Origin: a plasmid
Strand: one strand, 5' to 3'
DNA length: 64,000 nt
Sequence record: NZ_CP039562.1
Shown: piece by piece, positions 28,481 through 56,447 of the stretch
How the letters are laid out: every line of letters begins with the position of its first letter
Numbering within the stretch: position 1 is the first letter of the stretch
Notes under the pieces: model-generated
Databases searched by the model: none
What the model was told of the DNA's origin: nothing
The model's input: the letters and a program-made list of their open reading frames with translations, nothing else
Program-made: the position numbers and the translations under genes

Positions 28481-28494
28481 CCGATCCAGTAAAC

Positions 28495-29294: not shown

Positions 29295-30114
29295 GGCACT
29301 GTTGCAAATAGTCGGTGGTGATAAACTTATCATCCCCTTTTGCTGATGGAGCTGCACATGAACCCATTCAAAGGCCGGCATTTTCAGCGTGACATCATTC
29401 TGTGGGCCGTACGCTGGTACTGCAAATACGGCATCAGTTACCGTGAGCTGCAGGAGATGCTGGCTGAACGCGGAGTGAATGTCGATCACTCCACGATTTA
29501 CCGCTGGGTTCAGCGTTATGCGCCTGAAATGGAAAAACGGCTGCGCTGGTACTGGCGTAACCCTTCCGATCTTTGCCCGTGGCACATGGATGAAACCTAC
29601 GTGAAGGTCAATGGCCGCTGGGCGTATCTGTACCGGGCCGTCGACAGCCGGGGCCGCACTGTCGATTTTTATCTCTCCTCCCGTCGTAACAGCAAAGCTG
29701 CATACCGGTTTCTGGGTAAAATCCTCAACAACGTGAAGAAGTGGCAGATCCCACGATTCATCAACACGGATAAAGCGCCCGCCTATGGTCGCGCGCTTGC
29801 TCTGCTCAAACGCGAAGGCCGGTGCCCGTCTGACGTTGAACACCGACAGATTAAGTACCGGAACAACGTGATTGAATGCGATCATGGCAAACTGAAACGG
29901 ATAATCAACGCCACGCTGGGATTTAAATCCATGAAGACGGCTTACGCCACCATCAAAGGTATTGAGGTGATGCGTGCACTACGCAAAGGCCAGGCCTCAG
30001 CATTTTATTATGGTGATCCCCTGGGCGAAATGCGCCTGGTAAGCAGAGTTTTTGAAATGTAAGGCCTTTGAATAAGACAAAAGGCTGCCTCATCGCTAAC
30101 TTTGCAACAGTGCC
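29295..30114 (+). mobile_element. IS26: IS26 copy 1 (820 bp; tnp26 29358-30062; N184 variant)
   Basis: Terminal IRs GGCACTGTTGCAAA at both ends and a 234-aa Tnp26 ([31 protein letters not shown]...). The flanks are cgttttgt and ccacctgc. Confidence 0.95.
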
Positions 30115-31021
30115 CCACCTGCAGCGCGTTATAATGCATCACATTTTCTGCAGAAAGTGGCATAAGAAGATAGTCCGTATGCCTGTTGACATGCTCGAGC
30201 ATTTCAAACGGGCGCATGTGACGCGGGATTAGATCCGGCGCTCTGGCAATAAGATGAAGGAGATGCTGCTTTTCACGAACTTTCTGTTCACGGATGGAAG
30301 GGCAATACATGGCCAGCATCAGCGTCGATGACAGGGGCAGATAGATTTGTATGCCGGGCACGGCTAGGCCGATATTACCGTACACACCGAAGTCATTGCG
30401 GTTCTCCAGTACCACCGGATTGTCTGACACATAGAACGGATGTTCTGGCCTGGTTTCCAGGAGGTACCAGTCCTTACTTAGCAGGTGTTTAATATGCGAC
30501 ACCTGTTGGACAAGCTGCCGCAGAAAAATGTCTCTGGTATCGCCCCCGGGCGATAAACCCAGAGTTTCTCCTGCCTGCTCCTCAGTCACGCCCATTGCCG
30601 CCAGCTTATCAGTCAGCACCGAAATCATGCCTGAGATACGTTCCAGCTCACCGAAGGTACGTGCGCGCTGCACGGCAACAAACACGGCCAGCTTGTAGCG
30701 GTCATCTTCAGTCAGCCGGCGAATGTCCTTATGCTCCAGTAGGCCGGCAATGACCGGTGCCGCGTCATGTTCGTAAATCCCCAACAACGGTTCAAGACTG
30801 AATCGTTGAGGGTGATTATCGAAGTTGTAGAACGTATTCCGGACGGTGGCGTCATCCGGCGTGGTGGCATAAGCACGCCCGGCAGCCTTATCAAAGGCGT
30901 GTAAACGCTGGCGTTTTCCCTTTACCGGCTTGCTGAAGTGCTTCAGTAAAAAACGGGGGACTGTGTGCTGCCTGACAACGTCGGTCCGCAGGTTTAATGG
31001 TTCGGTCATGGAAATTATCAT
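30115..31021 (-). pseudogene. DUF4238-family (Rst_DUF4238-like) gene, 5' portion (302 codons); 3' end at 56333-56447
   Basis: The N-terminal motif RQHTVPRFLLKHFS resembles the DUF4238 signature. The frame is broken by IS26 after ...MHYNALQV. Confidence 0.5.
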
Positions 31022-31311
31022 CCTTGATGGACTGGTACTGTAGATTCACCGTGGACCAGCGAATCTATTATGTGGTGAGCAGAACATTAACACATCAATG
31101 TAACGCCGTAATCATTGAGTCTTTGCCGGGGACGCTTGACATCTCCGAAAGAATTATATCGTGAGTCTTAAGGGGAATCTCTTGCTTCCGGTTATACATT
31201 TAACCGGATCTAGCTATAAGACTGTTACATCTATTGGGATTAGGTCAGGACAGATAGCCTGAAAGCTTTTATAGTGAGGGACTTCAGAAATACCCTAGAA
31301 AAGGAACTGTT

Positions 31312-33987
31312 ATGGTAGGTTCGCGCTGGTATAAATTTGATTTTCATAACCATACTCCGGCTTCGCATGATTACAAAATTCCTGACATCAGCCCCAGAGA
31401 GTGGCTTCTGGCTTATATGAAACAGCATGTCGATTGTGTTGTAATCAGCGATCATAACAGCGGAGCCTGGGTCGACGTGTTGAAGGGTGAGCTGGAGAAT
31501 ATGTCCCGGGACGCCAGCACCGGCGACCTGCCGGAATTTCGGCCACTGACACTCTTTCCGGGGGTTGAACTGACAGCGACCGGTAACGTACATATTCTGG
31601 CTGTGCTGCACACGCACAGTACAAGTGCCGATGTGGAAAGGCTTCTGGCCCAGTGCAATAATAATAGCCCCATTCCGAGTGAAGTCCCTAACCATCAGCT
31701 CGTTCTTCAACTGGGCCCCGCCGGCATCATCAGTAATATCCGCCGTAATCCGAAGGCTGTTTGTATTCTTGCGCACATTGATGCAGCCAAAGGTGTCTTA
31801 AGTCTGACTAATCAGGCAGAGCTCACCGCAGCCTTTCAGGAAAGTCCCCATGCCGTTGAGATTCGACACCGGGTGGAGGATATCACCGACGGAACCCGCC
31901 GGCGGCTGATTGATAATTTACCGTGGCTACGGGGCTCTGATGCGCACCATCCTGAACAAGCCGGCATGCGAACCTGCTGGCTGAAAATGTCATCCCCTGA
32001 TTTTGACGGACTCAGGCATGCACTGCTCGATCCGGAAAACTGTGTGCTGTTTGATCAGCTCCCTCCGGAGGAACCTGCGTCATATTTGCGCAGCCTGAAA
32101 TTCAGAACCCGCCACTGCCATCCTGTGGGTCAGGATTCGGCCTCGGTGGAATTCAGCCCGTTCTATAACGCTGTAATCGGCTCAAGAGGCAGCGGGAAGT
32201 CCACGCTCATTGAAAGCATTCGTCTTGCAATGCGCAAAACAGAAGGTCTCACTGCGACCCAGGGGAGTAAGCTGGACCAGTTCATTCGGACGGGGATGGA
32301 AGCGGATTCCTTCATCGAATGTATTTTCCACAAAGAAGGCACAGATTTCCGGCTCAGTTGGCGACCAGACAGTAAGCATGAATTACATATCTTCAGTGAC
32401 GGAGAATGGATGCCTGACAGTCACTGGTCGGCTGACCGTTTTCCACTCTCGATTTACAGCCAGAAAATGCTCTATGAGCTGGCTTCGGATACTGGTGCAT
32501 TCCTGCGCGTCTGTGATGAGAGCCCGGTGGTTAACAAACGGGCCTGGAAAGAGCGCTGGGATCAGCTGGAAAGGGAATATCTGAATGAACAAATCACGTT
32601 GCGGGGCCTGCGTGCCAGACAGGGAAGTGCGGATTCGCTGCGGGGGGAATTATCGGATGCTGAACGTGCCGTCAGTCAGCTGCAGTCAAGCGCCTATTAT
32701 CCGGTTTGCAGACAGCTGGCCCTCGCCAGAAACGAGCTGTCCGCAGCAACCTTACCCCTGGAGCACTTTGAGCGGCGTATTGCAGCCATTCAGGCTCTGG
32801 CAGAAGAACCGCTGCAGAGATCCGATATCCCGCCGGAACCTTCCGGTCTGCTGATGGCATTTATGGCGCGCCTGTCATCTGTGCAACAGCAGTATGACCA
32901 GCGGCTCAATACTCTCCTGGCAGAATATGCTGCAGAGCTCGCGGGTATCAGGAGAGAGCAATCTTTTATTGCCCTCCGAACAGCAGTGAGTGACCAGGAA
33001 ACAAATGTAGAAAGTGAAGCTGTTTCCCTGCGGGCCAGAGGGCTTAATCCCGATGTTCTCAACGAACTGATGGCACGCTGTGAGTCACTGAAAAATGAGC
33101 TGAGAAATTACGACGGTCTTGATGGGGCGATCTCTGCCTCTGTTGCACGGTCTGAGCAGTTGCTGGCTGAAATGCGTGCCCACAGAATGGCATTGACAGA
33201 TAACCGGAAGGCGTTTCTCTCCTCCCTGTCGCTCAGCGCTCTGGAAATCAAAATTCTTCCCCTCTGCGCCCCTTATGAAGATGTTATATCTGGTTACCAG
33301 ACGGTTACCGGCATCAGTAATTTTGCCGAACGTATCTACGATAACAGTGACGGGAGCGGATTACTGAGCGACTTTATCAGTGAACGTCCGTTCAGCCCGT
33401 TGCCTGCCGCAACAGAGAAAAAATACAGGGCGCTGGACGAGCTGAAAGCGCTGCATCACAGCATCCGGCTGGATAATTCAGAGGCTGGGGCGGGGCTTCA
33501 TGGTTCTTTCCGGAATCGTCTCAGGAGTCTGAATGACCAGCAGCTGGATGCCCTGCAATGCTGGTATCCTGATGACGGCATCCACATACGTTACCAGACC
33601 CCCGGGGGGCAGATGGAAGACATTGCCTTTGCTTCTCCGGGGCAAAAGGGAGCGAGTATGCTGCAGTTCCTCTTATCCTATGGCACCGATCCTCTACTAC
33701 TGGATCAACCGGAGGATGACCTGGACTGCCTGATGCTGAGCATGAGCGTGATCCCTGCCATCATGTCGAACAAGAAACGCCGGCAGCTGATTATCGTGTC
33801 GCACTCTGCCCCTATAGTGGTTAACGGCGATGCAGAATATGTTATCAGTATGCAGCACGATCGCACAGGCCTGTATCCAGGACTCTGCGGTGCACTGCAG
33901 GAAGCTCCGATGAAGGCACTGATATGCCGTCAAATGGAGGGGGGAGAAAAAGCGTTTCGTTCGCGCTATGAGCGTATTCTTAGCTGA
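31312..33987 (+). CDS. Ppl-like defence protein: N-terminal PHP phosphoesterase domain fused to an SMC/RecF-like ABC ATPase with a coiled-coil insert (891 aa)
   Basis: PHP motifs YKFDFHNHTPASHDY and VISDHNS. Walker A is GSRGSGKST (aa 289-297). The C-terminus has a signature-like SPGQKG, Walker B/D-loop LLLDQPEDDLD and an H-loop IIVSHS. Confidence 0.6.
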   Translation: MVGSRWYKFDFHNHTPASHDYKIPDISPREWLLAYMKQHVDCVVISDHNSGAWVDVLKGELENMSRDASTGDLPEFRPLTLFPGVELTATGNVHILAVLHTHSTSADVERLLAQCNNNSPIPSEVPNHQLVLQLGPAGIISNIRRNPKAVCILAHIDAAKGVLSLTNQAELTAAFQESPHAVEIRHRVEDITDGTRRRLIDNLPWLRGSDAHHPEQAGMRTCWLKMSSPDFDGLRHALLDPENCVLFDQLPPEEPASYLRSLKFRTRHCHPVGQDSASVEFSPFYNAVIGSRGSGKSTLIESIRLAMRKTEGLTATQGSKLDQFIRTGMEADSFIECIFHKEGTDFRLSWRPDSKHELHIFSDGEWMPDSHWSADRFPLSIYSQKMLYELASDTGAFLRVCDESPVVNKRAWKERWDQLEREYLNEQITLRGLRARQGSADSLRGELSDAERAVSQLQSSAYYPVCRQLALARNELSAATLPLEHFERRIAAIQALAEEPLQRSDIPPEPSGLLMAFMARLSSVQQQYDQRLNTLLAEYAAELAGIRREQSFIALRTAVSDQETNVESEAVSLRARGLNPDVLNELMARCESLKNELRNYDGLDGAISASVARSEQLLAEMRAHRMALTDNRKAFLSSLSLSALEIKILPLCAPYEDVISGYQTVTGISNFAERIYDNSDGSGLLSDFISERPFSPLPAATEKKYRALDELKALHHSIRLDNSEAGAGLHGSFRNRLRSLNDQQLDALQCWYPDDGIHIRYQTPGGQMEDIAFASPGQKGASMLQFLLSYGTDPLLLDQPEDDLDCLMLSMSVIPAIMSNKKRRQLIIVSHSAPIVVNGDAEYVISMQHDRTGLYPGLCGALQEAPMKALICRQMEGGEKAFRSRYERILS

Positions 33988-34497
33988 AGAACGGAACCGT
34001 CCTTAAGGCGGCCACGACCGGAGAGTGGGCCTGGCGGCTGAATGCCTGGATAAAAGACGCAAATGTCAGACTGATGGCCTCTGCGTCTTTGTCAGCGCCA
34101 GTGATATAAGACGGTAATGGGGATGCGGACGATTTCCTGGACTCTCAGGAGATGAAACATGTTTACTGAAAAACAAAAAATCCGCGCCATTGAGCTTTTT
34201 TGTCGGGATAAAACGGAAAGCCGCTGGCCAGCCAGCTGTTGTTTACTCGTCACGCGACAGGCAAGCCTGTTCAAAAAACAGGCTTGCCGTACAATAATTC
34301 TCTATATCCAAACTGACCCCTTATAGAGAGCCTGACAGAGGCTGCCATGATATGGGCACATCAAGAATGACAATCCACACTCGTGTTGTTCTATCTGCTC
34401 AACCAGCAAGATATCATTGCGATGACTGTCCATCAGTAAGCGTCCCGGTTCCGGGCGGTCTAGTTTTGTGCCACTGATGTTCTCCCCGCAGTGGTTT

Positions 34498-35382
34498 CTA
34501 ACCATAGTATCTGTGGTAACTTTCACGTGCTTTTTCAAAAAGTTGGCATAGTACTTTACTGTTTTTTTGAGTCCAACTTTTTAATACATCCAGATGAATA
34601 TAGAAAGATGTCTCATCACCTGTTGCTATCAGTACTGAAAAATTTCTCAAGGAGATTGAACATGTGAATAATACATGTCTGAATAAAATATTTTCTTCTG
34701 AATTTGCTTTATGACAAAACGCTATGACAGAACCTGGTAAAAATGTAATATTTCGCATTGTATGATTCAGATCAGATAATAATAAACTCGAAATCGGATA
34801 AATGCCGGAGTTTTCTATATATCCCCTTCCATGCAATTCAAAATCATATGGTATATATTTATCTTTAGTTTCCATATATTCAACAGAGACTATTTTTGAA
34901 GGTGGGATGACCCCATTAAAGATATACCAGGTATCTTCTTTTGTGTTACCTTTTCGCATAATTTTACTTATCTGCTCATCGGTCATCCCCCTTGCCCCCT
35001 CAACCCCCATTGCACCTACGTACTTAACATAAGCTTTAGGTTGTCCAAGGTCACGCATTAGCTTTTTATATGAGCAAAATCCAGGCTGCTTTTTTATCCA
35101 TTCAGTATCTATTTTTAACCTTATTAACTTTTTATTATGTGTTCCATTTATAGACGTAGACTCAGATATATTACCGACTCTTCGCATAAATGATTTTTCT
35201 GATTCACTTAATTTTTCAGTACCGTTACATAATCCGTGACCATATGGTAATGGAGATGTCGTTAACCATACTTTATTATACAAAATTGTTCCATCATACA
35301 ACGTTAGATATCCTTCTCTCAGGCCTTCAGATGCAAGTATGGAATGCAACATAGGAATTGCTGTAAAGTGATATAAATCCAT
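34498..35382 (-). CDS. Unrecognised low-GC protein (294 aa), with possible ART-like N-terminal motif LYHFT
   Basis: Clean ORF with ~33% GC amid ~50% GC surroundings. Its start is 36 bp from the Tn1721 IR. Confidence 0.4.
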   Translation of the reverse strand: MDLYHFTAIPMLHSILASEGLREGYLTLYDGTILYNKVWLTTSPLPYGHGLCNGTEKLSESEKSFMRRVGNISESTSINGTHNKKLIRLKIDTEWIKKQPGFCSYKKLMRDLGQPKAYVKYVGAMGVEGARGMTDEQISKIMRKGNTKEDTWYIFNGVIPPSKIVSVEYMETKDKYIPYDFELHGRGYIENSGIYPISSLLLSDLNHTMRNITFLPGSVIAFCHKANSEENILFRHVLFTCSISLRNFSVLIATGDETSFYIHLDVLKSWTQKNSKVLCQLFEKARESYHRYYG

Positions 35383-35417
35383 AAATAACCCTATTCTGTC
35401 TATTTATATTCATTTTA

Positions 35418-35455
35418 GGGGAGCCCGCAGAATTCGGAAAAAATCGTACGCTAAG
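35418..35455. repeat. Tn1721/Tn1722 38-bp terminal inverted repeat
   Basis: GGGGAGCCCGCAGAATTCGGAAAAAATCGTACGCTAAG. The tnpA stop lies inside the IR. Confidence 0.85.
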
Positions 35456-36967
35456 GTTTTCCGGGCATCCGTAAGGGCCGAAACTTCCCGTCTTCCAGTC
35501 TGCGGCTCTGCCGCCAGACGTAATCGCCGGTTAGGTTGATGTGCTCCCAGCCCAGCGGCGACAGGAATTGCAGCAGCTCGCCGTCCACCGGCTTGCCGGC
35601 CTCGACCAACCCCTGGGTGGCGCGTTCCAGGTACACCGTGTTCCACAGCACGATAGCCGCCGTCACCAGGTTGAGGCCGCTGGCCCGGTAGCGCTGCTGC
35701 TCGAAGCTCCGATCCCTGATTTCCCCAAGGCGGTTGAAGAACACCGCCCTGGCCAGCGAGTTGCGCGCCTCACCTTTGTTCAGGCCGGCATGCACGCGGC
35801 GGCGCAGTTCAACACTTTGCAGCCAGTCCAGGATGAACAGCGTGCGCTCGATCCGGCCCAGCTCGCGCAGGGCCACGGCCAGTCCGTTCTGGCGCGGGTA
35901 GCTGCCGAGCTTGCGCAGCATCAGCGAGGCGGTGACGGTGCCCTGCTTGATCGAGCTGGCCAGGCGCAGGATGTCGTCCCAGTGGGCACGCACGTGCTTG
36001 ATGTTCAGGGTGCCGCCGATCAGCGGGCGCAACGTCGGGTAGGCTTGCACGCCCTGCGGCACGTACAGCTTGGTTTCGCCGAGGTCGCGGATGCGCGGCG
36101 CGAAGCGGAAGCCTAGCAGGTGCATCAGGGCAAAGACGTGATCGGTGAAGCCGGCCGTGTCGGTGTAGTGCTCCTCGATCCGCAGGTCGGACTCGTGGTA
36201 CAGCAGGCCGTCGAGCACATAGGTGGAATCGCGGACGCCGACATTCACCACGCGGGTGCTGAACGGCGCGTACTGGTCGGAGATATGGGTATAGAACAGC
36301 CGTCCCGGCTCGCTACCGTACTTCGGGTTGACGTGCCCGGTGCTCTCGCCCCGGCCACCCGCGCGGAAGCGCTGGCCATCGGAGGATGAGGTCGTGCCGT
36401 CGCCCCAGTGGGCGGCAAAGGCGTGGCGATACTGGTGGTTGACCAGCTCGGCCAAGGCCGCCGAATAGGTTTCGTCGCGGATGTGCCAGGCTTGCAGCCA
36501 GGACAGCTTGGCGTAGGTCAGGCCGGGGCTCGACTCGGCCATCTTGGTCAGCCCGAGGTTGATCGCATCACCGAGGATTGCGGACAGCAGCAACGTCCTG
36601 TCTTTGGCCTCGGCCCCGTCCTTCAAGTGGGTGAAGTGGCGGCTGAAGCCCGTCCAGTCGTCCACGTCCATCAGCAGTTCGGTGATCTTGATGCGCGGCA
36701 GTAACTGGCTGGTTTGGTCGATCAGCGCCTGCGCCCGATCCGGCACCGCCGCATCCAGCGGGGTGATTTTCAGCCCTGACTCGGTGAGGATGGCATCGGG
36801 CAGCTCGTTGTCCTTGGCCAGGCGGGTGACGGTGGCCAACTGCTCGTCCAGCAGCTGCAAACGCTCTTCCAGGTACTGGTCGCTGTTCGGGTTGATCGCC
36901 AGGGGCAGGGCCTGCTCGCGCTTGAGTGCGGCGAACTTCTCGGCCGGCAGCAGGTAGTCGTCGAAGT
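35451..36967 (-). pseudogene. tnpA: Tn1721-like Tn3-family transposase tnpA, 3' ~505 codons, 5' end removed by IS26
   Basis: Tn3-family TnpA C-terminal region (DDE region ...[31 protein letters not shown]...) ending in the Tn1721 IR. The N-terminal extension of the ORF is IS26 read-through. Confidence 0.8.
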
Positions 36968-37787
36968 GGCACTGTTGCAAATAGTCGGTGGTGATAAACT
37001 TATCATCCCCTTTTGCTGATGGAGCTGCACATGAACCCATTCAAAGGCCGGCATTTTCAGCGTGACATCATTCTGTGGGCCGTACGCTGGTACTGCAAAT
37101 ACGGCATCAGTTACCGTGAGCTGCAGGAGATGCTGGCTGAACGCGGAGTGAATGTCGATCACTCCACGATTTACCGCTGGGTTCAGCGTTATGCGCCTGA
37201 AATGGAAAAACGGCTGCGCTGGTACTGGCGTAACCCTTCCGATCTTTGCCCGTGGCACATGGATGAAACCTACGTGAAGGTCAATGGCCGCTGGGCGTAT
37301 CTGTACCGGGCCGTCGACAGCCGGGGCCGCACTGTCGATTTTTATCTCTCCTCCCGTCGTAACAGCAAAGCTGCATACCGGTTTCTGGGTAAAATCCTCA
37401 ACAACGTGAAGAAGTGGCAGATCCCGCGATTCATCAACACGGATAAAGCGCCCGCCAATGGTCGCGCGCTTGCTCTGCTCAAACGCGAAGGCCGGTGCCC
37501 GTCTGACGTTGAACACCGACAGATTAAGTACCGGAACAACGTGATTGAATGCGATCATGGCAAACTGAAACGGATAATCGGCGCCACGCTGGGATTTAAA
37601 TCCATGAAGACGGCTTACGCCACCATCAAAGGTATTGAGGTGATGCGTGCACTACGCAAAGGCCAGGCCTCAGCATTTTATTATGGTGATCCCCTGGGCG
37701 AAATGCGCCTGGTAAGCAGAGTTTTTGAAATGTAAGGCCTTTGAATAAGACAAAAGGCTGCCTCATCGCTAACTTTGCAACAGTGCC
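36968..37787 (+). mobile_element. IS26: IS26 copy 2 (tnp26 37031-37735), sequence variant Y143N / G184
   Basis: Same IRs as the other copies. Tnp differs from the other six at codon 143 (AAT Asn vs TAT Tyr) and codon 184 (GGC Gly vs AAC Asn), plus one silent change. Confidence 0.9.
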
Positions 37788-37878
37788 TTCTGAAACGAAA
37801 TTACAGATTACGGTTAAAATATAAAAAAAAGCCACCAATCCTGCCGGATACGGTGGCTTAAATACAGAATTAATTAAT

Positions 37879-38520
37879 TTATTTCAGTATGTTATCACAC
37901 ATCAGCTGAAGTGTATTGATAAACCTTGCTGCATGAAAACCATCACAGACTGCATGATGAACCTGTACAGAAACAGGTAATAGTACGCGGTCACCTTCCT
38001 GCTGAAACTTTGCCATTGTAAAAACCGGGGAAAAATAATCATCATTTCCGGTGATATTCAGATTAAATCCGTCAAAACTCACCCAGGGTAACGATGATAT
38101 ATTCAGGTGATTCTCCGGTAAATTTCCCTGCGGAAACAACCTGGTATCATGCTGATATTCTGCTGTTACCGCGTTATAACCCGCCATAAACTCACTGAGA
38201 TCCGGAAAATAACGGCAGGACAGTGCGGAGAATGTTTCGGTTTCTTTATGAAAGACAGTAAAGACCGGGTCTGACTGTTCCCAGTAAATCAGTTCATTAT
38301 CTTTCATTGCCATCCGGAACTCCGGAAACTGATTAACAGCCCGGGAGATCAGGTAAATCATCAGCGGATAAAACTTATAACCGGTTTTCGCCAGTGCAGT
38401 ACGCAAAGCGGTAATATCGAGTTTGGTGGTCAGGCTGAATCCGCATTTAATCTGCTGACGATAAAGGGCAAAATGTTCCCTGCGATTCCAGGTATTCAGG
38501 TCAATCCGGGTAAAATTCAT
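37879..38520 (-). CDS. catA2: Chloramphenicol acetyltransferase CatA2 (type II)
   Basis: MNFTRIDLNTWNRREHFALYRQQIKCGFSLTTKLDITALRTALA... with the HHAVCDGFH active-site region. It matches CatA2 from memory. Confidence 0.9.
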   Translation of the reverse strand: MNFTRIDLNTWNRREHFALYRQQIKCGFSLTTKLDITALRTALAKTGYKFYPLMIYLISRAVNQFPEFRMAMKDNELIYWEQSDPVFTVFHKETETFSALSCRYFPDLSEFMAGYNAVTAEYQHDTRLFPQGNLPENHLNISSLPWVSFDGFNLNITGNDDYFSPVFTMAKFQQEGDRVLLPVSVQVHHAVCDGFHAARFINTLQLMCDNILK

Positions 38521-38552
38521 GGTTATTCCTTCTGATTAATAGTGAAAAATAT

Positions 38553-39372
38553 GGCACTGTTGCAAATAGTCGGTGGTGATAAACTTATCATCCCCTTTTG
38601 CTGATGGAGCTGCACATGAACCCATTCAAAGGCCGGCATTTTCAGCGTGACATCATTCTGTGGGCCGTACGCTGGTACTGCAAATACGGCATCAGTTACC
38701 GTGAGCTGCAGGAGATGCTGGCTGAACGCGGAGTGAATGTCGATCACTCCACGATTTACCGCTGGGTTCAGCGTTATGCGCCTGAAATGGAAAAACGGCT
38801 GCGCTGGTACTGGCGTAACCCTTCCGATCTTTGCCCGTGGCACATGGATGAAACCTACGTGAAGGTCAATGGCCGCTGGGCGTATCTGTACCGGGCCGTC
38901 GACAGCCGGGGCCGCACTGTCGATTTTTATCTCTCCTCCCGTCGTAACAGCAAAGCTGCATACCGGTTTCTGGGTAAAATCCTCAACAACGTGAAGAAGT
39001 GGCAGATCCCACGATTCATCAACACGGATAAAGCGCCCGCCTATGGTCGCGCGCTTGCTCTGCTCAAACGCGAAGGCCGGTGCCCGTCTGACGTTGAACA
39101 CCGACAGATTAAGTACCGGAACAACGTGATTGAATGCGATCATGGCAAACTGAAACGGATAATCAACGCCACGCTGGGATTTAAATCCATGAAGACGGCT
39201 TACGCCACCATCAAAGGTATTGAGGTGATGCGTGCACTACGCAAAGGCCAGGCCTCAGCATTTTATTATGGTGATCCCCTGGGCGAAATGCGCCTGGTAA
39301 GCAGAGTTTTTGAAATGTAAGGCCTTTGAATAAGACAAAAGGCTGCCTCATCGCTAACTTTGCAACAGTGCC
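38553..39372 (+). mobile_element. IS26: IS26 copy 3 (tnp26 38616-39320; N184)
   Basis: IRs and an identical Tnp. It lies 32 bp upstream of the catA2 start. Confidence 0.95.
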
Positions 39373-40793
<1,421 letters not shown>

Positions 40794-40797
40794 TAGC

Positions 40798-40828
40798 GGA
40801 AACGGAATGGGGAAACTCATTCCGTTTT
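40798..40828 (+). terminator. Rho-independent terminator after blaCTX-M
   Basis: GAAACGGAATG-GGGAAACT-CATTCCGTTTTTG. Confidence 0.7.
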
Positions 40829-40851
40829 TGTTTATCGCCTTAGACGGCAAA

Positions 40852-40980: not shown

Positions 40981-40988
40981 AAAAATTA

Positions 40989-44519: not shown

Positions 44520-44557
44520 GGGGTCTGACGCTCAGTGGAACGAAAACTCACGTTAAG
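44520..44557. repeat. Tn2/Tn3 38-bp terminal inverted repeat
   Basis: GGGGTCTGACGCTCAGTGGAACGAAAACTCACGTTAAG. Confidence 0.9.
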
Positions 44558-47338: not shown

Positions 47339-47361
47339 AAGGAATATGACCTGGGACCTAC

Positions 47362-47553
47362 GTGCGCCCGCACCGACACCCTCACACCTTCGAGCTACTG
47401 TTGCCATTAAGGGGTCGTTTCGTGGTGCTGAATTTTGACGATCGGGGTACCGTCACCCATCGGGCGATATTGGGGGAAACCTGTACGGTGCTGGAGATGG
47501 CCGCAGGAACCTGGCATGCCGTGCTGTCGCTGGATACCGGTGGCATAATTTTT
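47362..47553 (+). pseudogene. wbuC: orf477/wbuC cupin gene 5' fragment
   Basis: MRPHRHPHTFELLLPLRGRFVVLNFDDRGTVTHRAIL... is a cupin HxH motif. It runs into the IS26 copy 5 left IR. Confidence 0.6.
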
Positions 47554-48373
47554 GGCACTGTTGCAAATAGTCGGTGGTGATAAACTTATCATCCCCTTTT
47601 GCTGATGGAGCTGCACATGAACCCATTCAAAGGCCGGCATTTTCAGCGTGACATCATTCTGTGGGCCGTACGCTGGTACTGCAAATACGGCATCAGTTAC
47701 CGTGAGCTGCAGGAGATGCTGGCTGAACGCGGAGTGAATGTCGATCACTCCACGATTTACCGCTGGGTTCAGCGTTATGCGCCTGAAATGGAAAAACGGC
47801 TGCGCTGGTACTGGCGTAACCCTTCCGATCTTTGCCCGTGGCACATGGATGAAACCTACGTGAAGGTCAATGGCCGCTGGGCGTATCTGTACCGGGCCGT
47901 CGACAGCCGGGGCCGCACTGTCGATTTTTATCTCTCCTCCCGTCGTAACAGCAAAGCTGCATACCGGTTTCTGGGTAAAATCCTCAACAACGTGAAGAAG
48001 TGGCAGATCCCACGATTCATCAACACGGATAAAGCGCCCGCCTATGGTCGCGCGCTTGCTCTGCTCAAACGCGAAGGCCGGTGCCCGTCTGACGTTGAAC
48101 ACCGACAGATTAAGTACCGGAACAACGTGATTGAATGCGATCATGGCAAACTGAAACGGATAATCAACGCCACGCTGGGATTTAAATCCATGAAGACGGC
48201 TTACGCCACCATCAAAGGTATTGAGGTGATGCGTGCACTACGCAAAGGCCAGGCCTCAGCATTTTATTATGGTGATCCCCTGGGCGAAATGCGCCTGGTA
48301 AGCAGAGTTTTTGAAATGTAAGGCCTTTGAATAAGACAAAAGGCTGCCTCATCGCTAACTTTGCAACAGTGCC
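47554..48373 (+). mobile_element. IS26: IS26 copy 5 (tnp26 47617-48321; N184)
   Basis: IRs. The left flank is taattttt. Confidence 0.95.
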
Positions 48374-48463
48374 AGCCAAACATCCCTGCGATGATCGACC
48401 TCTGGGCGTTTGGTCGTGAGCCCGCCACCCTCGCGCTACGCTTTGCGCAGGCGTCGAAGGCGA

Positions 48464-49006
48464 TCAGGTGCGCCCATCGATTCCGTCGAGCACCATCGCT
48501 GCGAGTTCATCGCTGGTGTGTGCACCACTATCGAGAACACGGGTTGTGCATGGAAGCCGTTCCCTTGCGGCCAAGCATCGGGCGACATTCGCTAATCGCC
48601 ACTCTCGAATCTCCGCATTTCGATTCGGGTCAGGATGCATGGTCTGGTTCGCGATCCGGTGACGCAATAGGTCCTCGTTGAGCGTCAGAAAGATGTGCAG
48701 CAGCTGATCGTCGATCCGCCTTACCCCGTCGAGTATCTCAGTCAGATAGTCCGGGTGCACGAGCGTCATTGGGATGATGATGTCCTGCGAGTAATTCCTT
48801 CGAATCTCCCTGACCGCCGCGATCGTAAGTCCCCTCCACAAGGGGAGATCCTGATAGTCTCCGCTCGCTGGCATGGGGACCGTTTCTTTCACCACGAACC
48901 CGATTTCCTCGGGGTCAAAGATCAGCGATTTGGAACGCCGATCGCGCAGCCGCTTAGCGAGCGTCGTCTTTCCGGCGCCGAAAGGTCCGTTGATCCAGAT
49001 TATCAT
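48464..49006 (-). CDS. tmrB: TmrB-like P-loop ATPase (tunicamycin resistance protein family)
   Basis: MIIWINGPFGAGKTTLAKRL Walker A. It is the typical partner downstream of aac(3)-IId. Confidence 0.7.
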   Translation of the reverse strand: MIIWINGPFGAGKTTLAKRLRDRRSKSLIFDPEEIGFVVKETVPMPASGDYQDLPLWRGLTIAAVREIRRNYSQDIIIPMTLVHPDYLTEILDGVRRIDDQLLHIFLTLNEDLLRHRIANQTMHPDPNRNAEIREWRLANVARCLAARERLPCTTRVLDSGAHTSDELAAMVLDGIDGRT

Positions 49007-49018
49007 TGTCGACGGCCT

Positions 49019-49879
49019 CTAACCTGAAGGCTCGCAAGAGCGCTCGACGGCCTCGTGCGGAGGCACGATCGGAGTGGTTCCGAAATGCTTCTCAAGATAG
49101 GTGACGCCGAACGTCACGATGTCCTGCGCGTCGAACAGGTAGCACTGAGCAAAGCCCACGACACCTTCTCGATGGCGACCGAGCTTCACGTAAGCATTTG
49201 CTATAGTTTCAACCGCATCCGGCTTTCCTTCGATAGCAAAGCAATCGAGAATGCCGTTTGAATCGTAATCCGATGCCGTTTTCCAGGCGACTTCACCGTC
49301 TCTTCCAAGCATCGGCATCTCATACGTCACCCACCGTTTGTTGGGGATATCGGCAACCGCCTCGGCGTAGTGCAATGCGGTAACGGAGTTTAGCGGCGCA
49401 CCCAACAGCAGGGCCTTCCCGCCAAGGCGAACGAACCGCTCGACGGGCGATCCTTCCCCCAAGGCGTGACCGAGTTCGTGAGGCTCCGTCAGCGTTTCAG
49501 CCAGCGGACCAACCGCGACCATCGATGCATCGGGGTGCGCGCTGCGCCGCGCGCCGGGGGCTTGAACCAGAAATTGATTCAGCAGGCCGAACCCACGGTA
49601 AGTCCCGGCTGTTGCGGGATCGAACGGCAGCCAGGTACGGCGGGCTTCGTCATCCAGCCGAGCGCCATTCAGAGTCTCCTCGTAGGGTGATCGGTCCCAC
49701 GACGCGTATCCCATCACAGTGCCAGTCGGCCCAACCGCGGAGCGTAACGCGGCAACGACCGTCTCCGCTCCTCCTTCGACCGGACCAATCGCTTTAAGTG
49801 AGGCATGCACCATCAAGAGGTCACCGGTTTGGACTCCGAGTTTTTGAAGCGCCTCCGTTATTGCCTTCCGCGTATGCAT
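49019..49879 (-). CDS. aac(3)-IId: Aminoglycoside 3-N-acetyltransferase AAC(3)-IId (gentamicin resistance)
   Basis: MHTRKAITEALQKLGVQTGDLLMVHASLKAIGPVEGGAETVVAAL... matches AAC(3)-II from memory. The start is taken at MHTRK. Confidence 0.85.
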   Translation of the reverse strand: MHTRKAITEALQKLGVQTGDLLMVHASLKAIGPVEGGAETVVAALRSAVGPTGTVMGYASWDRSPYEETLNGARLDDEARRTWLPFDPATAGTYRGFGLLNQFLVQAPGARRSAHPDASMVAVGPLAETLTEPHELGHALGEGSPVERFVRLGGKALLLGAPLNSVTALHYAEAVADIPNKRWVTYEMPMLGRDGEVAWKTASDYDSNGILDCFAIEGKPDAVETIANAYVKLGRHREGVVGFAQCYLFDAQDIVTFGVTYLEKHFGTTPIVPPHEAVERSCEPSG

Positions 49880-50085
49880 CGCGATATCTCCTCTAAACTG
49901 CAAAACACTATACGCTGATGAATCCCCTAATGATTTTGGTAAAAATCATTAAGTTAAGGTGGATACACATCTTGTCATATGATCAAATGGTTTCGCGAAA
50001 AATCAATAATCAGACAACAAGATGTGCGAACTCGATATTTTACACGACTCTCTTTACCAATTCTGCCCCGAATTACACTTAAAAC

Positions 50086-50905
50086 GGCACTGTTGCAAAG
50101 TTAGCGATGAGGCAGCCTTTTGTCTTATTCAAAGGCCTTACATTTCAAAAACTCTGCTTACCAGGCGCATTTCGCCCAGGGGATCACCATAATAAAATGC
50201 TGAGGCCTGGCCTTTGCGTAGTGCACGCATCACCTCAATACCTTTGATGGTGGCGTAAGCCGTCTTCATGGATTTAAATCCCAGCGTGGCGTTGATTATC
50301 CGTTTCAGTTTGCCATGATCGCATTCAATCACGTTGTTCCGGTACTTAATCTGTCGGTGTTCAACGTCAGACGGGCACCGGCCTTCGCGTTTGAGCAGAG
50401 CAAGCGCGCGACCATAGGCGGGCGCTTTATCCGTGTTGATGAATCGTGGGATCTGCCACTTCTTCACGTTGTTGAGGATTTTACCCAGAAACCGGTATGC
50501 AGCTTTGCTGTTACGACGGGAGGAGAGATAAAAATCGACAGTGCGGCCCCGGCTGTCGACGGCCCGGTACAGATACGCCCAGCGGCCATTGACCTTCACG
50601 TAGGTTTCATCCATGTGCCACGGGCAAAGATCGGAAGGGTTACGCCAGTACCAGCGCAGCCGTTTTTCCATTTCAGGCGCATAACGCTGAACCCAGCGGT
50701 AAATCGTGGAGTGATCGACATTCACTCCGCGTTCAGCCAGCATCTCCTGCAGCTCACGGTAACTGATGCCGTATTTGCAGTACCAGCGTACGGCCCACAG
50801 AATGATGTCACGCTGAAAATGCCGGCCTTTGAATGGGTTCATGTGCAGCTCCATCAGCAAAAGGGGATGATAAGTTTATCACCACCGACTATTTGCAACA
50901 GTGCC
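50086..50905 (-). mobile_element. IS26: IS26 copy 6 (tnp26 50138-50842, minus strand; N184)
   Basis: IRs. The flanks are cttaaaac and gcggcgac. Confidence 0.95.
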
Positions 50906-51655
50906 GCGGCGACAGATATTGCAACAATGTGTCGTCCAGCGCCGTGCCGTTGCCACGCAAAGCACTGGTGGCACGCTCCAGATATACCGTGTTCCACAAC
51001 ACGATGGCCGCCGTCACCAGATTGAGGCCGCTGGCCCGGTAGCGCTGCTGCTCAAAACTGCGGTCGCGGATTTCACCCAATCGGTAGAAGAAGACCGCCC
51101 TGGCCAGCGCGTTGCGCGCCTCGCCCTTATTCAGCCCCGCATGGACGCGGCGGCGCAGCTCCACGCTTTGCAGCCAATCCAAAATGAACAGCGTGCGCTC
51201 GATGCGCCCCAGCTCGCGCAACGCCACGGCCAAGCCGTTCTGGCGCGGGTAGCTGCCGAGTTTGCGCAGCATCAGCGAAGCCGTTACCGTGCCTTGCTTG
51301 ATGGAGGTGGCCAGCCGCAGAATTTCATCCCAATGGGCGCGTATTTGCTTGATGTTCAGCCTGTCGCTGCTAATCATCGGCTTGAGCGCGTCATAGGCGG
51401 CATCGCCCTTGGGGATGAATAGCTTGGTTTCGCCCAAGTCACGGATACGCGGCGCGAAGCGAAATCCCAGCAAATGCATCAAGCCAAACACGTGATCGGT
51501 GAAGCCTGCCGTGTCGGTGTAGTGTTCCTCGATGCGCAAGTCCGACTCGTGGTACAGCAGGCCATCAAGCACGTAAGTTGAATCACGAATGCCCACGTTG
51601 ACCACCTTGGCACTGAAGGGCGCGTACTGGTCGGAGATATGGGTGTAGAAAGTCC
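50906..51655 (-). pseudogene. tnpA: Tn3-family (Tn21/Tn1721 subgroup; TnAs2-like) tnpA internal fragment
   Basis: About 85-90% aa identity to the Tn1721-like fragment at 35451-36967 ([47 protein letters not shown]...). It is cut by IS26 on one side and by a junction at ~51655 on the other. Confidence 0.7.
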
Positions 51656-51659
51656 GTAA

Positions 51660-51750
51660 GTATCTTTACTCAAAAGTTGCAATCAATAATTTATTGAAAA
51701 AGATTGAAAGGTGGTGGTAAATAATGTTGCAATGTGGGAGTATCTGTAAT
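51660..51750 (+). mobile_element. IS1380-family (ISEcp1-like, diverged) right-end fragment carrying a TTGAAA-17 bp-TGCAAT outward promoter, without terminal IR
   Basis: About 85% identical to 39725-39800 of the ISEcp1 remnant (GATTGAAAGGTGGTGGTAAATAATGTTGCAATGTGGGAG). Confidence 0.5.
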
Positions 51751-51791
51751 TGTAATGACCCACTGAAATCCTGCTCAGGTCATAATGAGTG
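51751..51791 (+). repeat. Solo 41-bp copy of the ISKpn40-like left end (TGTAATGACCCACTGAAATCCTGCTCAGGTCATAATGAGTG)
   Basis: Identical to 54101-54141, the start of the complete IS3-family element downstream of dgkA. Confidence 0.8.
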
Positions 51792-51835
51792 ATGTCTCGT
51801 TAGAAAGTGATTGTTGGACTATTAATGGAGTAAGT

Positions 51836-53461
51836 ATGCCTTCCCTTATAAAAATAAAAATTGTTCCGCTTATGTTCTTTTTGGCACTGTATTTTGCATT
51901 TATGCTGAACTGGCGTGGAGTTCTCCATTTTTACGAAATCCTTTACAAATTAGAAGATTTTAAGTTTGGTTTCGCCATTTCATTACCAATATTGCTTGTT
52001 GCAGCGCTTAACTTTGTATTTGTTCCATTTTCGATACGGTATTTAATAAAGCCTTTTTTTGCACTTCTTATCGCACTTAGTGCAATCGTTAGTTACACAA
52101 TGATGAAGTATAGAGTCTTGTTTGATCAAAACATGATTCAGAATATTTTTGAAACCAATCAAAATGAGGCGTTAGCATATTTAAGCTTACCAATTATAGT
52201 ATGGGTTACTATTGCTGGTTTTATCCCTGCCATTTTACTTTTCTTTGTTGAAATTGAATATGAGGAAAAATGGTTCAAAGGGATTCTAACTCGTGCCCTA
52301 TCGATGTTTGCATCACTTATAGTGATTGCGGTTATTGCAGCACTATACTATCAAGATTATGTGTCAGTGGGGCGCAACAATTCAAACCTCCAGCGTGAGA
52401 TTGTTCCAGCCAATTTCGTTAATAGTACCGTTAAATACGTTTACAATCGTTATCTTGCTGAACCAATCCCATTTACAACTTTAGGTGATGATGCAAAACG
52501 GGATACTAATCAAAGTAAGCCCACGTTGATGTTTCTGGTCGTTGGTGAAACCGCTCGTGGTAAAAATTTCTCGATGAATGGCTATGAGAAAGACACCAAT
52601 CCATTTACCAGTAAATCTGGTGGCGTGATCTCCTTTAATGATGTTCGTTCGTGTGGGACTGCAACCGCTGTATCCGTCCCCTGCATGTTCTCCAATATGG
52701 GGAGAAAGGAGTTTGATGATAATCGCGCTCGCAATAGCGAGGGCCTGCTAGATGTGTTGCAAAAAACGGGGATCTCCATTTTTTGGAAGGAGAACGATGG
52801 AGGCTGCAAAGGCGTCTGCGACCGAGTACCTAACATCGAAATCGAACCAAAGGATCACCCTAAGTTCTGCGATAAAAACACATGCTATGACGAGGTTGTC
52901 CTTCAAGACCTCGATAGTGAAATTGCTCAAATGAAAGGGGATAAGCTGGTTGGCTTCCACCTGATAGGTAGCCATGGCCCAACCTACTACAAGCGCTACC
53001 CTGATGCTCATCGTCAGTTCACCCCTGACTGTCCACGCAGTGATATTGAAAACTGCACAGATGAAGAGCTCACCAACACCTATGACAACACCATCCGCTA
53101 CACCGATTTCGTGATTGGAGAGATGATTGCCAAGTTGAAAACCTACGAAGATAAGTACAACACCGCGTTGCTCTACGTCTCCGATCATGGTGAATCACTG
53201 GGAGCATTAGGGCTTTACCTACACGGTACACCGTACCAGTTTGCACCGGATGATCAGACCCGTGTTCCTATGCAGGTGTGGATGTCACCTGGATTTACCA
53301 AAGAGAAAGGCGTTGATATGGCGTGTTTGCAGCAGAAAGCCGCTGATACTCGTTACTCACACGATAATATTTTCTCATCTGTATTGGGTATCTGGGACGT
53401 CAAAACATCAGTTTACGAAAAGGGTCTAGATATTTTCAGTCAATGTCGTAATGTTCAATAA
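51836..53461 (+). CDS. mcr-3: Phosphoethanolamine-lipid A transferase MCR-3 (colistin resistance), 541 aa
   Basis: MPSLIKIKIVPLMFFLALYFAFMLNWRGVLHFYEIL... matches MCR-3 from memory. Low GC. Followed by dgkA, as in known mcr-3 cassettes. Confidence 0.85.
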   Translation: MPSLIKIKIVPLMFFLALYFAFMLNWRGVLHFYEILYKLEDFKFGFAISLPILLVAALNFVFVPFSIRYLIKPFFALLIALSAIVSYTMMKYRVLFDQNMIQNIFETNQNEALAYLSLPIIVWVTIAGFIPAILLFFVEIEYEEKWFKGILTRALSMFASLIVIAVIAALYYQDYVSVGRNNSNLQREIVPANFVNSTVKYVYNRYLAEPIPFTTLGDDAKRDTNQSKPTLMFLVVGETARGKNFSMNGYEKDTNPFTSKSGGVISFNDVRSCGTATAVSVPCMFSNMGRKEFDDNRARNSEGLLDVLQKTGISIFWKENDGGCKGVCDRVPNIEIEPKDHPKFCDKNTCYDEVVLQDLDSEIAQMKGDKLVGFHLIGSHGPTYYKRYPDAHRQFTPDCPRSDIENCTDEELTNTYDNTIRYTDFVIGEMIAKLKTYEDKYNTALLYVSDHGESLGALGLYLHGTPYQFAPDDQTRVPMQVWMSPGFTKEKGVDMACLQQKAADTRYSHDNIFSSVLGIWDVKTSVYEKGLDIFSQCRNVQ

Positions 53462-53578
53462 ATTACATTATTGGGGGCTCAGGCCCCCAATCATCTGTTA
53501 AATAATAGGTTTATTACTATTGTCCGTGTATTTCATGGTTGAAATTTTTAACGGGCAAATCAGAAAGAGGAAGCTAAA

Positions 53579-53959
53579 ATGGCAAAGCCTGGTGCAACTG
53601 GAATTACCCGAATCATTCATGCCACCAATTATAGTATGAAGGGGCTTTCTTCAGCTTGGAGACATGAAGCGGCTTTTCGTCAGGAACTGCTACTCATTGT
53701 GCTGTTGATGCCTCTGGCGTTTTTTGTCGGAGATGGTTTAAATCAAATACTACTCCTAATGGTTATAAGTTGGCTGGTTGTGATTGTAGAGATCCTGAAC
53801 TCAGCTATTGAAGCAGTAGTAGACAGAATAGGGTCAGAGCATCATGAGCTTTCTGGTCGAGCTAAAGACATGGGCTCTGCGGCTGTCTTCATTGCTCTGA
53901 TGTTGAATGCCATAGTGTGGGGTGCATTGACAGGGCGTAATTTATTAACCTGGTGGTAG
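53579..53959 (+). CDS. dgkA: Diacylglycerol kinase
   Basis: A 126-aa 3-TM protein with the DgkA motif EILNSAIEAVVDRIG. Confidence 0.8.
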   Translation: MAKPGATGITRIIHATNYSMKGLSSAWRHEAAFRQELLLIVLLMPLAFFVGDGLNQILLLMVISWLVVIVEILNSAIEAVVDRIGSEHHELSGRAKDMGSAAVFIALMLNAIVWGALTGRNLLTWW

Positions 53960-54100
53960 TGTTATCATCAATAATATTTTTAATTATTCATGGCAGCCAC
54001 CATAAATAGTGGCTGTTTAATGAAAAACAATAGATGCTAATTATAAGGTGGAACTTTTGTCTGTTTAGCCCGCACCATAGGTGCGAAAATAACCATATTT

Positions 54101-55315
54101 TGTAATGACCCACTGAAATCCTGCTCAGGTCATAATGAGTGGAGATCACAGACATGAGCATCACGATGGACGAAGAAATCAAACGTTGGACGGCCAAGCG
54201 CAAGTCCGCCTTGGTCATGGAAATCATTCAGGGCAAGACCACCGTCGCCGAAGCGGCTCGAGCCTTTGATTTGCCGCCCTCCGAGATTGAAGAATGGGTA
54301 GATGACGCCAAACGGGGCATGGAAAACGCCTTACGGGCCAAGCCACTGGATATTCGCGAGCAGTACGAGAAGCAGCTCAAGGAACTCCAGGAAGCTTATG
54401 GCGAGGCCATGCTGGAGTTACGCGCCAGAAAAAAGCTGGCCTCCCTGCTGGGCGAGGACGACAGATAGTCGCCGATGTTCAGCAGGGATTACGCGCAGAA
54501 GGTATTGATGTCTCCGTCAGCAAGCTCTGCCGCTGGTTTGGCCTGCCGCGTCGTAGTTGGTACTACCGCAGCGTCAAGGCCGCGCCCAAGCTTCAGGAGC
54601 ATCTGGTCACCCCGATCAAAAACATGATTGAGGAGAACCCATCGTTCGGTTACCGGACGGTTGCAGCCCTGTTGGGGTTCAACAAGAACACGGTACAGCG
54701 CATCTTCCAGCTCAAGGGCTGGCAAGTTCGCAAGCGTCCGGTTGGGTTTCGCCCCCGGATCCAGGCCCTGCCTTCGGTGGCCTCAGCGCCCAACCAACGC
54801 TGGGCGACGGACCTATGCCGGATCTGGGCTGGTCGCGATGGCTGGTGTTCCTTGGCGCTGGTGATTGATTGCCATACCCGTGAACTACTGGGATGGCATC
54901 TCTCGCGCAGTGGTAAATCGAAAACGGCCGAGGCAGCGCTGGAGCAAGCCTTAATTGCTCGCTTCGGCAGCTTGGGACGAGTTGCATCGCCGTTTTTGTT
55001 ACGTAGCGACAATGGGTTGGTGTTTACCAGCCGCAACTACACAGCACTGGTGAAGAGCTATGGGTTGCAGCAGGAGTTCATCACGCCGTACACGCCGGAA
55101 CAAAACGGCATGGTCGAGCGGGTGATCAGAACGCTCAAGGAGCAGTGTGCCCATCGGCAGAGGTTCGAGACCTTGCAGCATGCCAGTCGGGTGATTGGCG
55201 ACTGGATCCAGTTTTACAACCAGAAGCGTCCTCACCAGGCGCTAAAGATGAAAACACCGGCGCAGGCCTATGCCGAAGCCGCTTAGTTGTGCAGGAACGG
55301 CTGGGTCATTACAGT
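54101..55315 (+). mobile_element. IS3-family insertion sequence (ISKpn40-like), complete: orfA 54139-54468, orfB 54624-55286 (frameshift-fused)
   Basis: Imperfect terminal IRs TGTAATGACCCA.... OrfA has an HTH. OrfB has a DDE core (WATD...D...E) ending ...KTPAQAYAEAA. Confidence 0.75.
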
Positions 55316-55375
55316 TTATCGCAATAAAAACCTATACTCTTTTTAATATCCCCGACTGGCAATGCCGGGATAGAC

Positions 55376-55512
55376 TATTATTCTCCCCGGAGCCACTACG
55401 CTGACCCGGTTGATTTCAGAGGTAAGGGAAAAGGCGACGTTGCGCCTGTGGAACAAACTGGCACTGATACCGTCAGCCGAACAGCGTTCACAGCTGGAGA
55501 TGCTGCTGGGGC
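55376..55512 (+). pseudogene. tnpA: Tn2/Tn3 tnpA internal fragment (codons ~150-190)
   Basis: Encodes ...LTRLISEVREKATLRLWNKLALIPSAEQRSQLEMLLG, identical to part of the 44553-47338 tnpA. It abuts IS26 copy 7. Confidence 0.7.
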
Positions 55513-56332
55513 GGCACTGTTGCAAAGTTAGCGATGAGGCAGCCTTTTGTCTTATTCAAAGGCCTTACATTTCAAAAACTCTGCTTACCAGGCGCATTTC
55601 GCCCAGGGGATCACCATAATAAAATGCTGAGGCCTGGCCTTTGCGTAGTGCACGCATCACCTCAATACCTTTGATGGTGGCGTAAGCCGTCTTCATGGAT
55701 TTAAATCCCAGCGTGGCGTTGATTATCCGTTTCAGTTTGCCATGATCGCATTCAATCACGTTGTTCCGGTACTTAATCTGTCGGTGTTCAACGTCAGACG
55801 GGCACCGGCCTTCGCGTTTGAGCAGAGCAAGCGCGCGACCATAGGCGGGCGCTTTATCCGTGTTGATGAATCGTGGGATCTGCCACTTCTTCACGTTGTT
55901 GAGGATTTTACCCAGAAACCGGTATGCAGCTTTGCTGTTACGACGGGAGGAGAGATAAAAATCGACAGTGCGGCCCCGGCTGTCGACGGCCCGGTACAGA
56001 TACGCCCAGCGGCCATTGACCTTCACGTAGGTTTCATCCATGTGCCACGGGCAAAGATCGGAAGGGTTACGCCAGTACCAGCGCAGCCGTTTTTCCATTT
56101 CAGGCGCATAACGCTGAACCCAGCGGTAAATCGTGGAGTGATCGACATTCACTCCGCGTTCAGCCAGCATCTCCTGCAGCTCACGGTAACTGATGCCGTA
56201 TTTGCAGTACCAGCGTACGGCCCACAGAATGATGTCACGCTGAAAATGCCGGCCTTTGAATGGGTTCATGTGCAGCTCCATCAGCAAAAGGGGATGATAA
56301 GTTTATCACCACCGACTATTTGCAACAGTGCC
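55513..56332 (-). mobile_element. IS26: IS26 copy 7 (tnp26 55565-56269, minus strand; N184)
   Basis: IRs. The right flank gcaggtgg is the reverse complement of the copy 1 right flank ccacctgc. Confidence 0.95.
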
Positions 56333-56447
56333 GCAGGTGGAGTATGCTGAACAGTACGTGTTCTGCGGTGAAAACGATTTTTCTCTGGCTGAAAGAATGC
56401 TGGCTGCAGATGACCGTTACCGGACCGGGCCGCGGTTTACATTTTAG
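56333..56447 (+). pseudogene. DUF4238-family gene 3' fragment (37 codons + stop)
   Basis: Joining rc(30115-31021) to 56341 onward across one TSD copy gives ...NALQVEYAEQYVFCGENDFSLAERMLAADDRYRTGPRFTF*, in frame. Confidence 0.55.

Follow-up and report, generated by a model that had tools for sequence, protein, structure and literature searches.

Inverted 8-bp flanks and a split DUF4238 gene point to IS26-mediated inversion of a resistance array on an IncC-IncFII hybrid plasmid

Sequence record NZ_CP039562.1 is a plasmid, of which one stretch of 64,000 nucleotides (hereafter the window) was analysed. An array containing mcr-3.1, aac(3)-IId, qnrS1, blaCTX-M-55 and catA2, together with the anti-phage gene ppl, lies there between a truncated IncC traE gene and the stbB and parM genes of an IncFII backbone (Table 1). 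Seven complete 820-bp copies of the insertion sequence IS26 are distributed over this region; their ends and bodies were mapped by script and their boundaries were read directly. Copies 1 and 7, both 820 bp long and identical to each other, stand in opposite orientation on either side of 25,398 bp of DNA, and a gene for a DUF4238 protein is broken in two, with one part beside each of them. Our analyses indicate that the DNA between copies 1 and 7 was inverted by IS26 within an array of IncFII origin, probably in one transposition step, and that two smaller inversions of the same type are nested inside it.

Table 1. Features of the region, and local alignments of the window to plasmid pPN24 (positions in the window)
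Feature	Position	Strand	Remarks
traE (IncC), 5' 392 nt only	28903-29294	+	cut by IS26 copy 1; Pfam TraE; identical to pST34VN2 IncC backbone
Copy 1 outer flank, CGTTTTGT	29287-29294		end of traE part
IS26 copy 1	29295-30114	+	
Copy 1 inner flank, CCACCTGC	30115-30122		inverted copy of target duplication
DUF4238 gene, 5' part, ~298 codons	30115-31009	-	annotated coding sequence 30008-31009 reads into IS26
ppl	31312-33987	+	anti-phage protein Ppl, single-gene defence system; PADLOC, NCBIfam NF042955
IS26 copy 2	36968-37787	+	4 mismatches
catA2	37879-38520	-	annotation of identical pST34VN2 stretch
IS26 copy 3	38553-39372	+	
blaCTX-M-55	39918-40793	+	annotation of identical pST34VN2 stretch
Nested-inversion target duplication, AAAAATTA	40981-40988		left of copy 4
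IS26 copy 4	40989-41808	-	
qnrS1 segment	41809-47545		resolvase fragment; qnrS1 42444-43100 (-); truncated Tn3-family transposase
Nested-inversion target duplication, second copy (inverted), TAATTTTT	47546-47553		left of copy 5
IS26 copy 5	47554-48373	+	
aac(3)-IId segment	48374-50085		AAA ATPase 48464-49006 (-); aac(3)-IId 49019-49879 (-)
IS26 copy 6	50086-50905	-	right flank GCGGCGAC at 50906-50913
mcr-3.1 module	50906-55512		Tn3-family (TnAs2-type) tnpA remnant at start; GCTGGGGC beside IS26 at end
mcr-3.1	51836-53461	+	
dgkA	53579-53959	+	
ISKpn40	54101-55314		
Copy 7 inner flank, GCTGGGGC	55505-55512		ISKpn40 side
IS26 copy 7	55513-56332	-	
Copy 7 outer flank, GCAGGTGG	56333-56340		target duplication, DUF4238 3' part
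DUF4238 gene, 3' remnant, 35 codons + stop	56333-56447	+	starts with GCAGGTGG
stbB (IncFII)	57243-57596	-	Pfam; same order in IncF plasmids
parM/stbA (IncFII)	57596-58558	-	Pfam; same order in IncF plasmids
Alignment to pPN24 40561 to 29685	30115-40991	-	
Alignment to pPN24 23131-29696	40989-47554	+	
Alignment to pPN24 20539-22679	47946-50086	+	
Alignment to pPN24 19074 to 13651	50906-56336	-	
Alignment to pPN24 40551-48221	56330-64000	+	

The opposite orientation of copies 1 and 7 and the four 8-bp sequences flanking them had been described in an earlier note, made from the letters alone, and both direct reading and scripted mapping confirmed that description. The inner flank of copy 1, CCACCTGC, is the exact reverse complement of the outer flank of copy 7, GCAGGTGG. 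A second such pair, absent from that note, is formed by AAAAATTA and TAATTTTT at copies 4 and 5. When 14 random 8-mers, matching the 14 IS26 flanks, were drawn from the window in 200,000 trials, at least one reverse-complement pair arose in 0.25% of the trials (p ~0.0025), and two or more, the window having two, in none (0/200,000).

Joining the reverse complement of the sequence from 30115 onward to the sequence from 56341 onward produced an in-frame open reading frame of 333 amino acids with a DUF4238 match (Pfam PF14022, E = 8e-40). The proposal that the target lay inside this gene was thereby borne out, as reversal restores it intact, while in the split form the native last 35 residues are exchanged for 35 residues encoded by IS26. 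Junctions were searched for in PLSDB (72,556 plasmids) and in 5,426 complete Escherichia coli genomes. In PLSDB, 223 plasmids contain the healed DUF4238 junction with 100% identity; most of them are conjugative IncF plasmids, 80-110 kb in size, whose hosts are E. coli and Klebsiella. The gene order in one of them, NZ_CP023895.1, is ppl, DUF4238, a small hypothetical gene, stbB and parM, in agreement with the expectation that IncF plasmids would carry stbAB near DUF4238 and ppl.

A non-inverted relative had also been predicted, and pPN24 (MT449722), an E. coli IncFII plasmid, holds the full array in this form beside stbB-parM. Its order is IS26, ISKpn40, dgkA, mcr-3.1, IS4321, a truncated IS26, an AAA ATPase gene, aac(3)-IId, IS26, a resolvase fragment, qnrS1, blaCTX-M-55, IS26, catA2, IS26, a hypothetical gene, ppl, an intact DUF4238 gene, stbB and parM. 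Both 8-bp targets, GCAGGTGG and TAATTTTT, occur there once and without interruption. A single IS26 stands at the ISKpn40 end, where the IS26-GCCCCAGC junction is the same as that of the window; the left flank of this IS26 is IncFII sequence, TCAGGCTG, and not traE. When the inversion between copies 1 and 7 was undone in silico by removing one IS26 and one 8-mer, a single alignment to pPN24 of 18,537 bp (99.98%) was obtained, which crosses the healed DUF4238 gene into the stbAB backbone. The two plasmids thus share the same genes at 99.9-100% identity, the same IS26-ISKpn40 junction and the same variant IS26 beside catA2, whereas pPN24 differs from the window in its intact DUF4238 gene, its uninverted array, the IS4321 insertion, an extra 451-bp stretch and the lack of IncC DNA.

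The variant IS26 is copy 2, which has four differences from the other six copies and adjoins catA2 in pST34VN2 (OQ658820) as well. Since it lies beside catA2 in both the window and pPN24, it ties the two arrays to one ancestor and is a useful marker of their common descent. Between the resolvase fragment and qnrS1 lies a solitary 14-bp IS26 terminal inverted repeat without an IS26 body (42183-42196); it is also found in pPN24 (ending at 24338) and is therefore an old remnant. The earlier note had argued that ppl and DUF4238 arrived with the IncF-like segment, which was right but too modest: the whole resistance region is IncFII-derived, and the entire array, including ppl, came from a pPN24-like IncFII plasmid.

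Reversal of the copy 1/7 inversion leaves two segments, those of qnrS1 and aac(3)-IId, at their pPN24 positions but in the opposite orientation. The flip of the qnrS1 segment is explained by the inverted 8-mer pair at copies 4 and 5; a third IS26 inversion, to which the pair GTCGCCGC/GCGGCGAC belongs, accounts for the aac(3)-IId segment. This pair is complete in pST34VN2 (record positions 99897-103821). The window retains only the GCGGCGAC half; the GTCGCCGC half and 145 bp have been lost at a site where the full copy 5 stands in place of a truncated IS26. In pAUSMDU00008979_01, the GTCGCCGC partner is present with its 145 bp, but the IS26 towards mcr-3.1 is flanked by another sequence, next to a 670-bp deletion. 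The sequence missing there corresponds to 50906-51575 of the window, part of the Tn3-family tnpA remnant beside copy 6, and its loss looks like an IS26 adjacent deletion.

On the larger scale, the 25.4-kb interval enclosed by copies 1 and 7 comprises 18.0 kb that are inverted with respect to the stbAB side and 7.4 kb that are not. The claim that the whole region had been inverted therefore stands for the 18.0 kb but fails for the qnrS1 and aac(3)-IId segments, which two further nested IS26 inversions turned back, so that they now run collinear with the stbAB side. Outside the part shared with the window, pST34VN2 has further reverse-complement flank pairs (record positions 147614-151890 and 77654-158142): TTATTGCT/AGCAATAA around hha-PIN, CGTGAATC/GATTCACG across ~79 kb, and TATAAAAG/CTTTTATA. 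With several more such pairs in the plasmid family, the inversion reaction is frequent there; IS26 inversions are pervasive in the hybrid lineage.

The comparisons above establish three things: the pattern of the flanks, the gene restored by reversal, and the existence of relatives in which the array is not inverted. Previous work (He et al. 2015, mBio; PMC4471558) attributed opposite IS26 copies with inverted identical 8-mers and an inverted interval to intramolecular transposition in trans, and also noted the alternative that IS26 inserts a second time and the two copies then recombine with each other. In the window, complete IS26 copies in opposite orientation carry inverted 8-mers, and reversal restores a sequence known elsewhere. 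The signature of intramolecular replicative transposition named in the earlier note is thus the pattern described by He et al., although the alternative route would leave the same sequence. The probable cause, in our view, is one-step intramolecular replicative transposition, in which an IS26 of the IncFII-derived array acted in the inverse ('trans') orientation. We infer a single step because it is more economical, because no intermediate is on record, and because three inversions bear the signature.

The starting array would have consisted of ISKpn40, dgkA, mcr-3.1, aac(3)-IId, qnrS1, blaCTX-M-55, catA2, ppl, DUF4238, stbB and parM. The IS26 at its ISKpn40 end would have attacked GCAGGTGG, near the 3' end of DUF4238 on the same molecule, by replicative transposition in the 'trans' orientation. 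IS26 would thus have been copied, the 8-bp target duplicated in inverted orientation, the intervening ~25.4 kb flipped, and DUF4238 split into its 5' part and its 3' stub. Later, the sub-segments with qnrS1 and aac(3)-IId were turned back by two further IS26 inversions of the same type.

Several points weigh against this explanation. The same end product would result if IS26 had first inserted into DUF4238 in the ordinary way and RecA-dependent recombination with an inverted IS26 had come afterwards, so that the sequence does not separate the two routes. The other two flanks, CGTTTTGT and GCTGGGGC, form an unrelated pair. The arrangement in the window itself is known from its assembled sequence. 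Finally, the predicted pre-inversion hybrid appears in no database record.

The distribution of the junctions bears on the time of the event. The left junction, traE-IS26-DUF4238', is found in three PLSDB plasmids (p16E080, pST34VN2 and CP101380), and its IS26-DUF4238' half in five more records; an interrupted DUF4238 gene is therefore carried by 8 of the 72,556 plasmids, all eight being Salmonella IncC hybrids. In the five further carriers, the left flank comes from IncC DNA upstream of traE, from traY of IncFII, from the flank of copy 5 or from the qnrS1 segment, a variety that fits later IS26 adjacent deletions and IS26-IS26 recombination. Elsewhere in PLSDB, the right junction is retained only by pAUSMDU00008979_01, in which each half of the gene has the flanks seen in the window and the two IS26 face opposite ways. 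The interruption occurs in none of the more than 220 IncF plasmids in PLSDB that carry the locus, and the exact IS26-DUF4238' junction in 0 of the 5,426 complete E. coli genomes, where only ~90% matches to a divergent allele were obtained. Given that all eight carriers are hybrids, and that there are none among the IncF plasmids and E. coli genomes, we infer that the inversion dates from the common ancestor of the Salmonella IncC-IncFII hybrids or from shortly before it. The IS26-CCACCTGC and IS26-GCAGGTGG junctions are lineage-specific markers that could be used for tracking these hybrids in short-read data.

A possible, though less probable, order of events is that the inversion occurred in a free IncFII plasmid before its fusion with IncC, the traE flank CGTTTTGT then being the later fusion point and not an old IS26 site. 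The IncFII left flank of the corresponding IS26 in pPN24 agrees with this order, and the final structure would be the same whether inversion or fusion came first. No PLSDB record covered at least 80% of the predicted pre-inversion junction, traE-IS26-ISKpn40. The reciprocal junction, IS26-CGTTTTGT-traE 3', was found in no PLSDB record either; it was built, with IS26 in the + orientation only, from an intact IncC traE, which in another record runs on beyond the break in the window. Both of these negative results also favour inversion before fusion. However, every carrier of the interrupted gene is an IncC hybrid, and the interruption is absent from the more than 220 IncF plasmids and from the complete E. 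coli genomes. Moreover, neither of the hybrids examined, the window and pST34VN2, contains the DNA to the left of the pPN24 IS26 (9000-13653), which was sought in order to place the fusion point on the IncFII side. The inversion may have come either before or after the fusion, as both orders give the same product and the predicted junctions are absent from PLSDB. The view that the CGTTTTGT and GCTGGGGC flanks mark the position of the pre-existing IS26 holds for GCTGGGGC, which has the same junction in pPN24, but is plausible and unproven for CGTTTTGT in traE.

Another possibility, which we consider unlikely, would be an ordinary IS26 insertion in DUF4238, through cointegrate formation and resolution with a direct duplication of GCAGGTGG, followed by homologous recombination with an opposite IS26 that flipped the segment. 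Its product would equal the observed sequence base for base, and such a route has been proposed for similar cases, as discussed by He et al. (PMC4471558). Recombination between IS26 copies does occur in this family: AUSMDU00004549 P01 has one IS26 with flanks of both copy 5 and copy 1 (TAATTTTT/CCACCTGC), and the replacement of the truncated IS26 by copy 5 in the window, with its 145-bp loss, can be counted on the same side. On the other hand, three steps would be needed instead of one, and the intermediate, with an IS26 in DUF4238 and the two halves collinear, exists in no PLSDB record and in none of the complete E. coli genomes. Moreover, three separate inversions in the array all have the inverted-duplication signature, which is the direct product of one-step transposition. 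A chance match or an artefact of assembly at the 820-bp repeat is rejected as exceedingly improbable: although IS26 is longer than short reads and segments between its copies can be mis-oriented in assemblies, a mis-join can neither create an 8-bp duplication nor split a gene exactly there, the random draws speak against chance, and the same junctions in independently sequenced plasmids from Vietnam, China and Australia rule out the boundary errors that the earlier note had named as a possible refutation.

An IS26 also adjoins DUF4238 in p5735-2 (NZ_CP154889.1; IS26 at 3581-4400), an unrelated bovine E. coli plasmid. The allele is divergent (~80% nucleotide identity), and the junction lies 7 bp from the break position in the window, which is either a coincidence or the mark of a locally favoured IS26 target. 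The break is fixed in every sampled hybrid, and the last 35 residues are replaced in a gene beside ppl; together with the p5735-2 junction, these facts raise the idea that selection favoured a lost or altered DUF4238, for instance because the hybrid was thereby relieved of a cost or an exclusion effect, or that the site is an IS26 hot spot. We give this idea very little weight.

The predicted product of ppl is confirmed as the named single-gene anti-phage protein Ppl by its matches to NCBIfam NF042955 (1330 bits, cut-off 1000) and to PADLOC Ppl (1826 bits over residues 1-891). The DUF4238 protein matched no PADLOC family at E <= 0.01. The label 'defence cluster' given to the two genes is therefore justified for Ppl, but for DUF4238 it rests on adjacency to ppl. 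Between the DUF4238 stub and stbB, a small gene annotated as hypothetical (56672-57082, minus strand) matches the AcrIF11 family of anti-CRISPR ADP-ribosyltransferases (NCBIfam NF052490, E = 1.5e-26, 94 bits, cut-off 50). Based on this match, it is likely an anti-defence gene, and on the IncF backbone it is a neighbour of ppl, a defence gene. The minus strand of the array also has two truncated Tn3-family transposase genes (NCBIfam NF033527), one at 35451-37040, which reads into IS26 copy 2, and one at 44553-47102; both are unlisted in public gene tables because pseudogenes are omitted there.

The window is 100.0% identical to pST34VN2 over 47,174 bp (window 1-47174, pST34VN2 25013-72186), and on the stbAB side it is likewise identical to both pPN24 and pAUSMDU00008979_01. 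Monophasic Salmonella Typhimurium of sequence type 34 (ST34) from Vietnam is the host of pST34VN2, an IncA/C2 plasmid with an IncFII-derived transfer region (PMC10547704), and the family of this plasmid consists of IncA/C-IncFII hybrids whose resistance regions have many small rearrangements (PMC10151351). With an IncC backbone and IncFII-derived DNA containing mcr-3.1, blaCTX-M-55 and qnrS1, the window is, as judged by its sequence, a member of this published mcr-3.1/blaCTX-M-55 hybrid lineage of Salmonella ST34. The open-access papers on the lineage mention inversions only in general terms and do not treat target duplications or a named inversion; 'IS26' and 'inversion' do not occur in PMC10547704, nor 'target site' in PMC10151351.

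To conclude, no new biology is added, since both the mechanism and the plasmid lineage were known before, the latter from publications and databases; the practical value of our work is a base-level history for the resistance region of a globally disseminated mcr-3.1/blaCTX-M-55/qnrS1 plasmid. Like the window, the members of the hybrid family (pST34VN2, p16E080 (MN647788), pH1-012/pH1-014 and pAUSMDU00008979_01) are IncC-IncFII plasmids with mcr-3.1 and blaCTX-M-55. The traE-IS26-DUF4238' junction is common to the window and pST34VN2, but the latter has lost IS26 copy 7, the DUF4238 3' stub and stbAB, and its IncC DNA from the traE 3' part to a point upstream of traF is gone altogether. The cases of He et al. 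(PMC4471558) likewise display opposite IS26 copies, inverted 8-bp flanks, a split gene and inverted DNA in between, and pPN24, with one IS26 and an intact target, plays here the role that pKpQIL-10 has relative to pKpQIL-234. There is no mechanistic difference from those cases; what distinguishes the present one is that three events are nested in one 25-kb array, the third with one partner flank lost.

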